A DNA stretch of 64,000 bases from Eledone cirrhosa. Lineage: Eukaryota. A model generated the notes under the pieces. It was not told the origin of the DNA and searched no databases. It saw only the letters and a program-made list of their open reading frames with translations. How positions within the stretch are numbered: position 1 is the stretch's first letter; each line of letters starts with the position of its first letter. Of the stretch, positions 21,236-43,063 are shown one piece after another. Made by a program: the position numbers and the translations under genes. The stretch spans positions 992,001 through 1,056,000 of the forward strand of contig OZ024747.1 of the NCBI GenBank assembly GCA_964016885.1, given 5' to 3'.

Positions 21236-21530
21236 ATAAAAACAAATAACGAAACGAAATTAAATTTCGTTTCATTTGTAACTCACTTTTGTATGACTGA
21301 CGCTTAAACAATTAAGTTAAAGATGTACATCCATATATGTATACTGAAATACTAGTATGTATATGAATACACACACGTATACATATGTAGATGTACCAAG
21401 TTTTTCACTGGTCACTTTACTGTGAGTGGCCAGCTATTCTGTATGTAAACACACAGACAAACCGGTTTTTAGAGTCATACTGGTTTTTGAGGAAACACCT
21501 TTCCTCTATTCTCCAGAAAGCCAGACAAGG

Positions 21531-21575
21531 AATATTGAACTAGTTTCGTTGTTGTTACAACTCATCAGCAATATT
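21531..21575 (-). ncRNA. Minimal type I hammerhead ribozyme (467 family, inverted copy)
   Basis: Exact reverse complement of 21855-21899. Confidence 0.88.
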
Positions 21576-21854
21576 TACCTATCTTCCGGCCTCTCTAGAG
21601 AATACATACTAGTATTTCAGTATACATATATGGATGTACATCTTTAACTTAATTGTTTAAGCGTCAGTCATACAAAAGTGAGTTACAAATGAAACGAAAT
21701 TTAATTTCGTTTCGTTATTTGTTTTTATCGTCTCCGTTGAACCGGTACTTACTCACACTCTATGCAAATTAGTATGCCCACTACTAATTTTCATAGAAAA
21801 AGCATATAACGATATGTGCTTTTACGATTCTCTAGAGAGGCCGGAAGATAGGTA

Positions 21855-21899
21855 AATATTGCTGATGAGTTGTAACAACAACGAAACTAGTTCAATATT
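21855..21899 (+). ncRNA. Minimal type I hammerhead ribozyme (467 family)
   Basis: aatattg-CTGATGA-gttgt(aaca)acaac-GAAA-ctag-TT-caatatt: 7-bp stem I, 5-bp stem II, palindromic stem III, GUU site. Confidence 0.9.
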
Positions 21900-22321
21900 C
21901 CTTGTCTGGCTTTCTGGAGAATAGAGGAAAGGTGTTTCCTCAAAAACCAGTATGACTCTAAAAACCGGTTTGTCTGTGTGTTTACATACAGAATAGCTGG
22001 CCACTCACAGTAAAGTGACCAGTGAAAAAACTTGGTACATCTACATATGTATACGTGTGTGTATTCATATACATACTAGTATTTCAGTATACATATATGG
22101 ATGTACATCTTTAACTTAATTGTTTAAGCGTCAGTCATACAAAAGTGAGTTACAAATGAAACGAAATTTAATTTCGTTTCGTTATTTGTTTTTATCGTCT
22201 CCGTTGAACCGGTACTTACTCACACTCTATGCAAATTAGTATGCCCACTACTAATTTTCATAGAAAAAGCATATAACGATATGTGCTTTTACGATTCTCT
22301 AGAGAGGCCGGAAGATAGGTA

Positions 22322-22366
22322 AATATTGCTGATGAGTTGTAACAACAACGAAACTAGTTCAATATT
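22322..22366 (+). ncRNA. Minimal type I hammerhead ribozyme (467 family)
   Basis: Identical to 21855-21899. Confidence 0.9.
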
Positions 22367-22589
22367 CCTTGTCTGGCTTTCTGGAGAATAGAGGAAAGGT
22401 GTTTCCTCAAAAACCAGTATGACTCTAAAAACCGGTTTGTCTGTGTGTTTACATACAGAATAGCTGGCCACTCACAGTAAAGTGACCAGTGAAAAAACTT
22501 GGTACATCTACATATGTATACGTGTGTGTATTCATATACATACTAGTATTTCAGTATACATATATGGATGTACATCTTTAACTTAATTG

Positions 22590-25049
<2,460 letters not shown>

Positions 25050-25057
25050 AATGATAT

Positions 25058-28000
25058 TAAATAAATGGAAACTATATTTATAAAACCATATTTATTTTAT
25101 TATATATATTTCAAGGGTAACCAAAACAACATTGGTACGCTTTCATCAGATAAAATACAAAGTTTGTTTTATAAATAGAGGCATACCCATGAAAATAATA
25201 CCTTATCGGTTGGAAATTCACTGGATAGTAGTATTATATTAGAGATTATTCAAACTTATGTGTGAATATGCAAATGAATATGTAAATAATTGAAAAACAA
25301 CCGTTTATTTACATGACACTGGAGAAAAAGAGAGAGAGAAAAAATATAAGGGGATAAAGATAAAAAATATTACGAGAGAGATAGAGAGAAGAAATAGACA
25401 AGAGAAGATGAATATAACGTTAATTTGGGGGAAATATATTCTAAGTATAAATCTAATATGTGTATTTACGATTATTCGTTGTTTAAAATTCGTTTCTAAT
25501 ATATTTTCTGTTATAAGTAGATAGATAAATAAATAAATAAATAAATAAATAGATAGATAAATAAATGAATAGATGGGTATATCGTGTTATAGATAATTGT
25601 TTTAATGAGTTATGAGGGTATTGGTTTTGTATTTAATGTAAGTAAATATTAAGTTAAATTAAATTAAATTAACTGAGTTAATAAGAATATTTATATTTAT
25701 ATATTTTAAAATGGGAAGATACGGAAAAACTCCAGTTTTGTTTATTTATTCGTTAGTATGAGACTATTTTGTTAACATAAGTATAAATGTTGAAAGATTT
25801 AGTTAGTGGTTATAAATCTAATAAAAGATATTGAAAAAATATTAAAAATTTGAGAAAATTAAAAAAAAAAAAAATTTATAAAGATAAGTAATTTTAAAAA
25901 AATAAGTAATTTTTAAAAAGGGATAAAAAGATTAAAGAAATAAAAAATAAAAAATTAAGAATTAAAAATTATTAAGATTAAAATAACAATTAAAATTACA
26001 ATTAAAATAACATTTTTTTTTTTTTTTAAATTAGAATTATATATGTATATATTTTATGAAACTTTACGAAGTGAAATTATAGCAAATGTTATAGATATGA
26101 TTTAGAGAAATCAATATATTAAAACCAAGTGGATAAGATGTTATGGAAATAAGTAGAAATATTATAAGTGTAATTATAATTTATATATAGTTCTAAATGT
26201 TGAATTCAGGCGATGTCTACAAGAACTAAATAAATTCGTTCTTAGATTAATAGAGTTCTTACATTTAAGTATAAAAAAAATTTCCTCAACACGCAATTTG
26301 CAGAATCTAAATAAAGCTGTGTTTCAATACGCGGGTGCTTCGAAATTATTTCCCAAGTTAATGAAAAGTCCATATTTTTGCATTTTAAGTTCCATATCAG
26401 GTTTGAAAGAGAAGTTGAAGATTTATCAAATCTTTGGAAAGAGCATTTGTGATTATTCCAGCGTCTTTTAAATTCTGTAGAAGTTGCACCTACATAGTTA
26501 AATATATTATCACTGGTTTTAACTGTACATTTATAGACCACGTCCTTATCTAAACACTTATTTTGTAAAGGACAGTTTAATTTAATTCTACAGTTACATT
26601 TTGCGGAGTTGTTATTCAGAACGGTATTATTATGTTGGATATTGCTAGAGATATTACTGCTATTTTGGTTATTTTGGTTAGGGTTTAAATTTCTATTATT
26701 GATTCTATTTATATTTTGTGCTATGTTCATAGTAGTAGAGTAGGATAGTTTTATAGTATGTCTGTTAAAGATTGAGTTGTATCTGTGGGCTTTAGGAAAA
26801 CATTTATCTAGTGCTTTAAAGAATAGCTTTGCTAAAGGTGTTTTAACGCTTAATGAGAATGGGGGTGAGTACCAAATAATATTTCTAGTTCCATTTCTTC
26901 TGTTAGTTTTAGAGTTTAAGTTAGATATTTTTAATTATAATTATAATTAATAGTAGGGTTATTTGCCTTATTACTGTTGTCGATGTATTTAATCTTATTT
27001 ATATAGCCTGCTCTATTTAAAGCTTCATTATAATATTCTGCCTTATCGTCAAAAATGTTTTTATTAGCGGAGATGCGTGAAATATGTTGTTGGATAGAAT
27101 TAACAATAGTGTTCTTGATAGATTTAGGATGATTAGAGTTAAAACTTACATAGTTTAGATTCTCATTAATTTTATGGAATGGACAGTAGAGCCCTGTGTT
27201 AAGGTTTAATGTTACGTTTAAAAAGTTAACAATTGTATAGTTATTCTCTATTTCTAACTTAAGGTTGTAGCTATTGAAGAATTGTATTATGGATTTTCTT
27301 CTTCTATTAATTTCACAATTACTATGATTTTCAATTAAAAGCAGCATATCATCACGATATAAACCACTGGTCATCTCTGGTATTTTTCTATGCAGTGTAT
27401 TATTAATAAATAGCCCCACAAGATCCGTTATTTGCGCCGAGTCTGATGATCCCATGGTGATATCAAAATTATTTTTTCTATCGGCTCTAGTCCAGAGATG
27501 ATTGTTGAATTCAATTAAAGTTTTCCGTGCGGTTAAAAGATATGCATTTCTTCGCTAGATAAATCTGTATGTTTAGATGCATAGATAAGAGCTTTATTAA
27601 GTAAATTAGGAGTAATGGAGGAGTAGTAGTTTGCTATATCCAATTGAATGAATTTTTTGTTATGTTTAAATTTTATGTTATTGAACCAATCTATAACTTC
27701 GTTAGTACCGTTCCATAGTTTTAGGTAAGCTATTTATTTAAGTTGCGGTATGATTCTATCTAATATATGTTTACTAACTATGCCTAAGTCTGATTTAGAT
27801 GGTGCTGTAAGTCTGACTAGTAGTTCTATTTCAAAGTTTCTTTTGTGGTCTTTCAGGTTAATTTTTGGTCTTCTAGGTATAAAGGGTTCGGTCCTATTTT
27901 CGATGCCTAATTTATGAATTATTTCAGAAGCTTCTCTATTTACCATTTCAAGATCTTCATTAGTTGTTATTTTGTAGTTTTTCCTTAGTTCTTTCAATAT

Positions 28001-37196: not shown

Positions 37197-37265
37197 GTAT
37201 ATATATGTAGCGGCGATGAATTAGTTTTGCGAGGTTTTTTATATGAAATCGTGTGTCGAAACAGA

Positions 37266-38011
37266 TATTGTTATATTTGGGGAGGGTCATATTTGCGTAA
37301 TATTGCCAGAATTAATAACAGAACACACTCACTGTTTGGTTGGTTTTCGCTTCTCGCTGTCTTTTATATATATATATATCTGCGATCTAACTTACTCGGT
37401 CCTCAATGTTGCTATTGACTGACCGGCGGTCAAAAATAATACAGATACAATATAGACAAACACATATATATATAGTTTACATAATTTACATAAATCTTTC
37501 GTTGCACATCTGCAACAAAATTAAATTAAATAAAATAAGATAAATAAATACATACACAAGCACATAAACACACACTAGTCACCCAGCAGACACAACACTA
37601 TACACACTAGTCACACATCACACATAACACTATACACACACGCAAACGCATGCGCAAAGAAGACAAAATAAAATAAGATAAACAAACAAGCAAATAAATA
37701 AATAAATATATAGACAGACTGAACAAAAAAGGAGGAACAATGAATATAACACCACTGACGATGTTGCAGATGTGCAACGAAAGATTTATGTAAATTATGT
37801 AAACTATATATATATGTGTTTGTCTATATTGTATCTGTATTATTTTTGACCGCCGGTCAGTCAATGGCAACATTGAGGACCGAGTAAGTTAGATCGCAGA
37901 TATATATATATAAAAGACAGCGAGAAGCGAAAACCAACCAAACAGTGAGTGTGTTCTGTTATTAATTCTGGCAATATTACGCAAATATGACCCTCCCCAA
38001 ATATAACAATA
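37266..38011. repeat. Inverted repeat with about 250-bp arms (37266-37517 / 37762-38011) between (TA)n arrays
   Basis: Arms are near-perfect reverse complements. Confidence 0.9.
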
Positions 38012-39522: not shown

Positions 39523-41201
<1,679 letters not shown>

Positions 41202-41485: not shown

Positions 41486-41548
<63 letters not shown>

Positions 41549-41874
41549 AGTTGAAAAAAATGAAAACGAAATTTCATTTCTCACTCTTAGTATAGCACTT
41601 ACTTAAATGTAAGTATGTATGTATACGTACATACATATATGTATACAGACGTACAGTAGCATGCATATATATACATATATATATATATACATATATATAC
41701 ATACATATACATATATACATACAGGTACACATACATATATGCACGCATCAGTTTAGCGGACGTTTATTACAACGCCGCTTTGTTCGTTTGTTTGTCAACA
41801 AACCGAACAGCCTGAATTTATGCCATACGGTGTTAAGGCAACCACGTCACCTTTTTGTTCAACATTGACACAGG

Positions 41875-41919
41875 AACGATGTACTAGTTTCAAGCTTGTT
41901 AGCTATCATCAGCACCGTT
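41875..41919 (-). ncRNA. Minimal type I hammerhead ribozyme (492 family)
   Basis: aacggtg-CTGATGA-tagct(aaca)agctt-GAAA-ctag-TA-catcgtt; GUA site. Confidence 0.88.
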
Positions 41920-42366
41920 TACCCATCTGCCAGATAGTTGAACGTTCGAAAGTATATACTTTCCTTATGAAAATTAACGGCTGAGCAGCCTAATTTGCAT
42001 ATTGAGTGAGTTAAATCGGTCAGGCATACCGAAAACGATAAGTTGAAAAAAATGAAAACGAAATTTCATTTCTCACTCTTAGTATAGCACTTACTTAAAT
42101 GTAAGTATGTATGTATACGTACATACATATATGTATACAGACGTACAGTAGCATGCATATATATACATATATATATATATACATATATATACATACATAT
42201 ACATATATACATACAGGTACACATACATATATGCACGCATCAGTTTAGCGGACGTTTATTACAACGCCGCTTTGTTCGTTTGTTTGTCAACAAACCGAAC
42301 AGCCTGAATTTATGCCATACGGTGTTAAGGCAACCACGTCACCTTTTTGTTCAACATTGACACAGG

Positions 42367-42411
42367 AACGATGTACTAGTTTCAAGCTTGTTAGCTATCA
42401 TCAGCACCGTT
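42367..42411 (-). ncRNA. Minimal type I hammerhead ribozyme (492 family)
   Basis: Identical to 41875-41919. Confidence 0.88.
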
Positions 42412-42858
42412 TACCCATCTGCCAGATAGTTGAACGTTCGAAAGTATATACTTTCCTTATGAAAATTAACGGCTGAGCAGCCTAATTTGCATATTGAGTG
42501 AGTTAAATCGGTCAGGCATACCGAAAACGATAAGTTGAAAAAAATGAAAACGAAATTTCATTTCTCACTCTTAGTATAGCACTTACTTAAATGTAAGTAT
42601 GTATGTATACGTACATACATATATGTATACAGACGTACAGTAGCATGCATATATATACATATATATATATATACATATATATACATACATATACATATAT
42701 ACATACAGGTACACATACATATATGCACGCATCAGTTTAGCGGACGTTTATTACAACGCCGCTTTGTTCGTTTGTTTGTCAACAAACCGAACAGCCTGAA
42801 TTTATGCCATACGGTGTTAAGGCAACCACGTCACCTTTTTGTTCAACATTGACACAGG

Positions 42859-42903
42859 AACGATGTACTAGTTTCAAGCTTGTTAGCTATCATCAGCACC
42901 GTT
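42859..42903 (-). ncRNA. Minimal type I hammerhead ribozyme (492 family)
   Basis: Identical to 41875-41919. Confidence 0.88.
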
Positions 42904-43026
42904 TACCCATCTGCCAGATAGTTGAACGTTCGAAAGTATATACTTTCCTTATGAAAATTAACGGCTGAGCAGCCTAATTTGCATATTGAGTGAGTTAAAT
43001 CGGTCAGGCATACCGAAAACGATAAG

Positions 43027-43063
<37 letters not shown>

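Follow-up and report, generated by a model that had tools for sequence, protein, structure and literature searches.

Tandem hammerhead repeats of Eledone cirrhosa carry a likely internal snRNA-type promoter that joins a U6-class octamer to U1/U2-like spacing

Results

Two tandem hammerhead arrays lie within (TA)n tracts

The window analyzed here is a 64,000-nucleotide stretch of Eledone cirrhosa DNA (GCA_964016885.1, contig OZ024747.1, positions 992,001 to 1,056,000 of the forward strand). It contains two tandem arrays, one of a 467-nt unit (family F1) and one of a 492-nt unit (family F2), whose features are collected in Table 1. The motifs listed for these units in a preliminary description, made from the window alone, are all present at their positions and in the same order in both. 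The 3′ end of the inverted F1 copy is the downstream junction site (offset −34, counted from the octamer), right after T5, and the F2 array starts and ends at the −38 junction. Both units have a GC fraction of 0.35, that is, below 45%, and contain no ATG-initiated ORF of more than 54 codons; the longer ORFs seen there run in from the flanking (TA)n alone. Elsewhere in the window, positions 39603–40970 (−) hold an open frame, 5′-truncated against (TA)n, with reverse-transcriptase motifs that are presumably those of a LINE, and positions 37209–38006 hold a long inverted-repeat (foldback) element between TA tracts.

Table 1. Features of the F1 and F2 arrays in the window. Offsets are counted from the octamer.
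Feature	Position	Strand	Remarks
F1 array	21602–22593	+	467-nt unit, 2.1 tandem copies, inside (TA)n; right end is the upstream 3′ junction site, offset −103
F1 inverted partial copy	21236–21603	−	5′-truncated
F1 tail	21659–21728	+	between two fixed 3′ insertion ends; ends loose to TA at 21659 and 21728
F1 tail, GTGAGT	21678–21683	+
F1 tail, hairpin	21687–21720	+
F1 tail, T5	21722–21726	+
F1 ACTCAC	21751–21756	+	predicted pairing with GTGAGT of the tail
F1 octamer box TATGCAAATTAG	21761–21772	+	same as the host U6/U6atac/MRP box
F1 PSE-core position	21778–21782	+	YCAS at offset 16–19
F1 TAATTTTCATA	21785–21795	+	near-copy of the octamer box in inverted orientation; predicted to form a hairpin with it
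F1 TATA-like box TATAAC	21805–21810	+	offset 43
F1 predicted transcription start	21834–21836	+	offset 72–74; A21834 under U1 geometry
F1 type I hammerhead	21846–21902	+	outer stem I and bulge, AGATAGGTAA
F1 hammerhead, stem I	21855–21861 / 21893–21899	+	core 21862; loop II AACA; 2-bp palindromic stem III
F1 predicted cleavage	21892	+	after GUU
F2 array	41546–43028	−	492-nt unit, 3.0 identical copies, inside (TA)n
F2 tail	42038–42097	−	between junction sites −96 and −38
F2 tail, GAGTGAG		−
F2 tail, hairpin	42074–42045	−
F2 tail, T7	42052–42046	−
F2 promoter block	41951–42001	−	octamer box 42001–41990; TCAGC 41984–41980; inverted box 41976–41966
F2 TATA-like box TATATACT	41958–41951	−
F2 predicted transcription start	A41928	−
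F2 hammerhead	41872–41928	−	core 41912–41906
F2 predicted cleavage	41882	−	after GUA

The units have the hallmarks of non-LTR retrozymes

A full-core type I hammerhead is present in each unit, with a 7-bp stem I, the stem II loop AACA and a 2-bp palindromic stem III in both. Compensatory differences in stems I and II had been described and are confirmed: a pattern search yielded nine distinct variants but missed the 467 variant of the window, whose stems were checked in the RNA fold. An Rfam scan of the units returned nothing at the gathering score; below it, Hammerhead_HH9 was matched with E-values of 3.9e-8 (F1) and 0.037 (F2). The units are short, tandem, low in GC, without a coding ORF and dispersed in many copies, and on this sequence evidence we classify them as non-LTR retrozymes with type I hammerheads. 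Metazoan non-LTR retrozymes are, in the accessible parts of two accounts (PMC7229834; bioRxiv 10.64898/2026.07.22.740005), likewise non-coding, low-GC tandem repeats with one type I hammerhead per unit, present in thousands of dispersed copies and proposed to depend on Penelope-like elements. The units found here (424–492 nt) are longer than the 170–400 nt given in the available text of PMC7229834 and fall within the 51–972 nt given in that of the preprint.

Further AT-rich hammerhead motifs lie in the window at 25149 (−), 34147 (−), 30287 (+) and 36589 (+), and elsewhere at loci L192, L198, L202, L211 and L233. These have no octamer box upstream and resemble the pseudo-LTR ribozymes of Penelope-like elements.

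F1 and F2 belong to a set of related, abundant families

A pattern of octamer plus TAATTTTCATA matched 17,379 times in the animal's own 3.0-Gb genome and a pattern of octamer plus hammerhead 26,021 times, with no match for either reversed-pattern control. An F2 pattern independent of the promoter gave 28,138 matches, and a separate pattern, aimed to leave out F2 but still including it, gave 18,142. The octamer-box 12-mer is expected by chance at approximately 1.6e-4 per unit, and the shared cassette is far above chance.

The unit bodies had been described as looking unrelated. F1 and F2 are 69% identical across 122 nt from the hairpin to the TATA-like box and 72% identical across the ribozyme, and a similar TA-rich hairpin precedes the tail in both. 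They are homologues, not independent, and part of a set of at least eight related families.

Families F1 to F4 were defined by the search for octamer plus hammerhead, F4 from one copy (L151), and each of them shows YCA at offset 16, counted from the octamer. A search for the box followed by N3–5 and WTCAGT gave 222 matches against 4 for the control, with exactly N4 between box and WTCAGT in 94 of 100 among the matches listed; sequences were read for 30 loci and for 17 of the other 70 listed. This search exposed hammerhead families F5 to F8 and relatives, so that the hunt for more families suggested in the preliminary description has yielded F3 to F8 and their relatives. In three of the octamer–PSE matches (L247, L257 and L330), which may be fortuitous, the expected offset shows neither a hammerhead nor a TATA-like box. 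L258 carries an octamer box and TCAGT, with a TATA at a U6-like offset of 47 and a possible decayed hammerhead.

The octamer box is that of host U6-class genes

Host U6, U2, U1, U6atac, RNase MRP and RNase P genes were used for comparison with the repeats. The box TATGCAAAT(T/G)AG lies upstream of U6, U6atac and MRP, with the octamer at −76 to −78. The form TATG(C/G)(A/T)AAT(T/G)AG together with a TATA at −30 was found at two single U6 genes, a U6 array, the best U6atac match and MRP, and one host U6 gene shares 13 of 13 bases with the F1 box. Among the 30 U6 loci first examined, 2 are without the box at that place and 6 array copies have an insertion after it. The box is absent from 12 weaker U6 matches and from 14 of 15 U6atac matches, which look like retrocopies, and it is also absent from five U1 promoter types, four U2 promoter types and RNase P. 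Six copies of the U6 array, L037 among them, have roughly 200 nt of inserted sequence, by eye resembling a SINE, between the promoter and the U6 gene.

In host U1 and U2 promoters, TCA(G/A)T is located at −56 to −58, with an AT-rich box around −30. The RNase P RNA gene (L207) has TCAGT at −63, TATA at −31, no octamer box and a T10 end, a U1/U2-type PSE core with Pol III-type spacing. A distal element, TTAYYTCCCTT, is found near −260 in 11 of 12 host promoters and is absent from the F1, F2 and F5 units.

PSE core and spacing in the repeats resemble those of U1 and U2

The PSE core reads TCAG in F2 and in F5 to F8 and a degenerate CCAC in F1. A TATA-like box, for which we had not selected, lies at offset 40–45 in all 10 family representatives (chance 0.02–0.06 each), outside the 46–48 nt that separate octamer and TATA in the host U6 class. 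From PSE core to TATA, the repeats measure 24–29 nt, U1 and U2 23–29 nt, and U6, U6atac, MRP and RNase P 30–32 nt, a rule drawn from few host genes, with RNase P taken as Pol III from its T10 end, the U6-class PSE register set from the octamer and TATATA registers ambiguous by 2 nt.

A profile of U1/U2 promoters, built from the unselected columns after TCAGT and applied to eight families, peaked at shift 0 (sum −8.7; next best −49.9), whereas on the U6 class it gave a weak peak at +4. The fit was significant for F5 to F7 (P up to 0.002), F8 and F3, but not for F2, F4 or F1 (against shuffles, P = 0.10 for F2 and 0.78 for F1). Taken together, core and downstream profile fit F5 to F8, where the core was partly selected for, fit F2 to F4 weakly and do not fit F1; the families are related and are not independent tests of the layout. 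Under both geometries the predicted start falls at offset 72–75, at the foot of the ribozyme. The F1 and F2 units lack an A and B box pair, with one A-like match in F2 and none in F1, and a scan for the 3′ box gave one-mismatch matches only.

The octamer thus sits on a PSE–TATA pair with U1/U2 spacing, a chimera seen on no host gene examined. The preliminary description had compared the block to U6-type promoters and proposed a check against the host genes. The resemblance to snRNA promoters is there, in an octamer identical to the host U6/U6atac/MRP box and a TATA-like box fixed in 10 of 10 representatives; the U6-type label does not fit, since PSE core and spacing match U1 and U2. Across three of the readings weighed below, each unit very probably contains an internal snRNA-type promoter, judging from its motifs and their spacing.

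Among 100 F2 copies picked regardless of the promoter, the octamer is exact in 63 of the 76 that reach that site. One F2 array has been amplified with its octamer altered to ATGCATAT, which counts against the promoter reading. A subfamily, F2c (L298, L309 and L315; units of about 424 nt), has the box TATGCAAATTGG, or TATGCATATTGG in one array, and is missing 8 nt between TATA and ribozyme. In F5 (425-nt unit; L250, L252–L256 and L334), three to four tandem 29-nt degenerate octamer–PSE modules precede the main block.

Three shared motifs are better explained as RNA structure

ACTCAC, TAATTTTCATA and AGATRGGTAAA had been proposed as promoter parts, but predicted folds assign each of them to RNA structure instead. 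ACTCAC pairs with the tail GTGAG in the predicted circular folds of both units, and AGATRGGTAAA forms the outer stem I of the hammerhead and its bulge. TAATTTTCATA, predicted to pair with the octamer box, takes the form TAATATGCATA in much of F2, and neither F3 and F4 nor the host genes contain it; F3 and F2c have matching changes on both sides of this pairing. The shared cassette of the preliminary description stands for the order common to both units; TAATTTTCATA and the T-run vary among copies and families.

The promoter block is predicted to fold into hairpins with compensatory changes, and part of its conservation may be structural. It is conceivable, though improbable, that the block is inactive, a captured relic kept as RNA structure or as a reverse-transcriptase signal, with RNA supplied by host read-through. 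One point in favor is the predicted pairing of the octamer box with its inverted copy further downstream, for which F3 and F2c show compensatory changes; others are circular monomers that fold far better than shuffles and the missing distal element. Newt satellite 2 is read through from upstream promoters according to the accessible part of PMC2114352. Against an inactive block, the box retains the host sequence while its pairing partner varies across families, the register of PSE core and TATA is constant over 10 representatives whose spacers have diverged, and F5 carries its tandem copies of the 29-nt octamer–PSE module.

The hairpin and T-run probably form a Penelope-type tail

Sense-strand 3′ ends from 50 loci and the window fall at two fixed sites per family, −103 and −34 in F1 and −96 and −38/−45 in F2. 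In our own reading, the two arms of 18 insertions end at different fixed sites, one at each; three loci (L187, L005 and L160) do not show this pattern. The hairpin and T-run, proposed as a terminator, lie between the two insertion ends. F2 junctions lie beyond the T-run, about 13 of 46 coming from copies without T4 in that tract and falling at the same place, and the retrocopies derive from templates that extend across it. The T-run is not invariant: T5–T7 occurs in F1, F2, F3, F5 and F6 (T5 or more in 5 of 9 families), it is lost in part of F2, and the representatives of F6c, F7, F8 and F10 have no T5 in the tail. F2 keeps T6–T7 in most copies though copied from read-through templates.

Of the 100 F2 copies described above, 53 continue upstream beyond −85, 5 end at 64–74 and not one ends at the cleavage site. 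Because of these copy ends, the RNA that was copied appears usually to span tail and promoter, as a circle or as an uncut multimer. A fossil start site was also sought in truncated F2 copies, of which 3 of 47 stop at offset 68, too few to call one. Contig closure was dropped as evidence for circles: a 497-nt contig (X4) closes on itself with the promoter included and X6 is similar, but tandem DNA assembles alike, and the look covered 4 of 6 listed contig runs of undefined kind, of which X1 may be the assembly's own sample. No RNA data set was listed as containing the 467-nt unit, which says nothing about its expression.

For Penelope-like elements, the term tail denotes the segment bounded by the two sites at which reverse transcription starts; their typical features also include inverted truncated copies and (TA)n targets (PMC11167929 and the accessible part of PMC8557442). 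Two fixed 3′ ends, an inverted 5′-truncated partner and (TA)n targets are all found here, as for a non-autonomous Penelope-like element, and the hairpin/T-run is best read, from this insertion anatomy, as such a tail. The terminator reading retains one point in its favor, because the bodies are depleted of T4. The likeness extends to tandem or inverted 5′-truncated copies, AT-rich or (TA)n targets and a hammerhead with a short palindromic stem III, whereas the units lack an ORF and have a tail of 58–69 nt rather than 30–40 nt (PMC11167929 and the accessible parts of PMC8557442 and PMC4209133).

Elements with reverse transcriptase (RT) and GIY-YIG nuclease are abundant in the genome. An autonomous partner sharing the cassette was not found in one RT–GIY-YIG family (30 of 150 listed loci, 1.5-kb flanks), and a hammerhead scan of those flanks gave scattered F1/F2 or octamer-less ribozymes only, none at a fixed place. 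At L153 (721–2069, −), an element combining RT and GIY-YIG, whose nuclease is preceded by a cysteine motif and which we take to be Neptune-like, lies directly downstream of an F3-like cassette; it has at least 150 scored relatives of 86–94% identity, self excluded.

Bodies between start and tail are depleted of T4 runs

Neither unit body has a T4 run, as had been noted. Over eight bodies, taken from predicted start to tail with boundaries set by hand and from related families, a single T4 run occurs in 1,883 nt and seven bodies have none; expected are 9.8 under mononucleotide shuffling (P = 0.0006) and 6.3 under dinucleotide shuffling (P = 0.014), or 6–10 overall. Tail and promoter contain 20 such runs in 1,154 nt, and six octamer-less hammerhead elements show no depletion. 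This is the signature that Pol III would leave, and it counts against Pol II. An argument from an asymmetry of A4 over T4 was dropped because A4 is not above expectation.

Discussion

A likely chimeric promoter and the choice of polymerase

The explanation we prefer, at about an even chance of being right as a whole, is that the units are non-coding tandem hammerhead repeats in which a host U6-class octamer and a U1/U2-spaced PSE and TATA form a likely internal promoter, probably used by Pol II. Transcription would start about 72 nt past the octamer, at the foot of the ribozyme, and the transcript would read through the tail and the promoter of the next unit. Two hammerheads, probably acting as a dimer as described for short-stem-III hammerheads in the accessible part of PMC4209133, could then release an RNA of unit length, promoter included, which would probably be circularized. 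A Penelope-like reverse transcriptase/endonuclease would nick (TA)n DNA, and cDNA would start at one or other of the two sites on either side of the tail hairpin; the resulting insertions, tandem and inverted, would bring the promoter with them. Such a promoter likely allows the tens of thousands of repeats to be transcribed on their own, and their spread likely used borrowed Penelope-type retrotransposon enzymes.

Pol II is favored because of the PSE–TATA spacing and the need for read-through, Pol III because the bodies are almost free of T4. Transcription by Pol III, from a compact U6-class promoter with most RNA ending at the T-tract and rare, stable, cut and circularized read-through RNA serving as template, is the less likely of these two but a real candidate. 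The octamer adjacent to the PSE occurs only on Pol III genes among the host genes examined (the box being limited to U6, U6atac and MRP), which counts against Pol II, and the T4 depletion begins at the predicted start and ceases at the tail, where five families have T5–T7 tracts. Furthermore, the F5 spacing of 29 is 1 nt below the host Pol III range, RNase P has a TCAGT core on a gene ending in T10, and the schistosome repeats are a precedent in the accessible part of PMC6765202. However, the modal spacing is 4–5 nt under that of every host Pol III gene examined, and no more than 5 of the 100 F2 copies end close to the predicted start, the cleavage site being an end in no case. The junctions of F2 are found beyond the T-run and do not move in copies that lack T4, four family representatives have no T5 in the tail, and the T6–T7 kept by the abundant F2 should be selected against if Pol III must read through.

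A combination is also imaginable, though we give it little credence: the chimeric promoter might recruit both enzymes, with Pol III responsible for short RNAs that terminate and Pol II for the read-through multimers that serve as templates. This would cover T4-free bodies, U1/U2 spacing and promoter-containing templates together, but what selects T4-free bodies is unexplained if Pol III products are rarely copied. More speculatively, and doubtfully in our own estimate, a long-lived ribozyme–retroelement clade may have built a hybrid snRNA promoter recruiting Pol II and Pol III and seeded more than 30,000 octamer–PSE–TATA sites genome-wide. In Drosophila, the two snRNA promoter classes differ by 4 bp in spacing. 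In insects, PSE sequence and spacing bear on polymerase choice, according to the accessible part of PMC1761439. The hybrid-promoter clade, if real, would provide a naturally occurring allelic series in which to see what sets the choice of polymerase at snRNA promoters.

Relation to known repeats

The schistosome Sm-alpha promoter is of the A/B-box type. In Sm-alpha SINE-like repeats, as here, a promoter precedes a hammerhead in each unit; those repeats are described as Pol III-transcribed, whereas the present units have a probable snRNA upstream-type promoter and no A and B box pair (PMC6765202 and PMC2220036, accessible parts). The same partial texts already describe the tandem structure of the schistosome and newt repeats as keeping the upstream promoter, and cite newt satellite 2 (Coats, Zhang and Epstein 1994) for an snRNA-type promoter used by Pol II. 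That satellite, as far as those excerpts go, is like F1 and F2 a tandem hammerhead repeat with an internal snRNA-type promoter, but in another host and as one satellite against at least eight families. Here, the octamer lies directly beside the PSE, as in the host U6 class, a TATA-like box is present, and a Penelope-type tail and inverted insertions are seen.

The available portions of PMC7229834 and bioRxiv 10.64898/2026.07.22.740005 describe no promoter for metazoan retrozymes. More widely, in literature thin on subscription papers and with preprint supplements outside, we found no account of this layout in retrozymes; neither the chimera and its retention across many families nor the shared tail turned up there. 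The concept is known from newt satellite 2 and the schistosome repeats, while the architecture and scale look new. For the transcription of animal retrozymes, the two precedents rest, in the parts of the sources available, on single satellites; this genome offers a promoter layout that is conserved in eight or more diverged families, together with a predicted start base. These retrozymes are linked to the Penelope mechanism by the way their insertions are built, with a fixed two-site tail, and not by co-occurrence.

Compared with the host genes, the repeats have the octamer box of U6, U6atac and MRP and the PSE core and spacing of U1 and U2, and are missing the distal element. The comparison also defines the host U6/U6atac/MRP layout (octamer at −77, TATA at −30, distal element near −265), which is what guide-RNA expression cassettes for this animal need. 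At L101–L120, tandemly arrayed U1 genes have an F1 cassette in their spacer, some 1.3 kb upstream of the U1 gene, and the cassette appears to have been co-amplified with the array.
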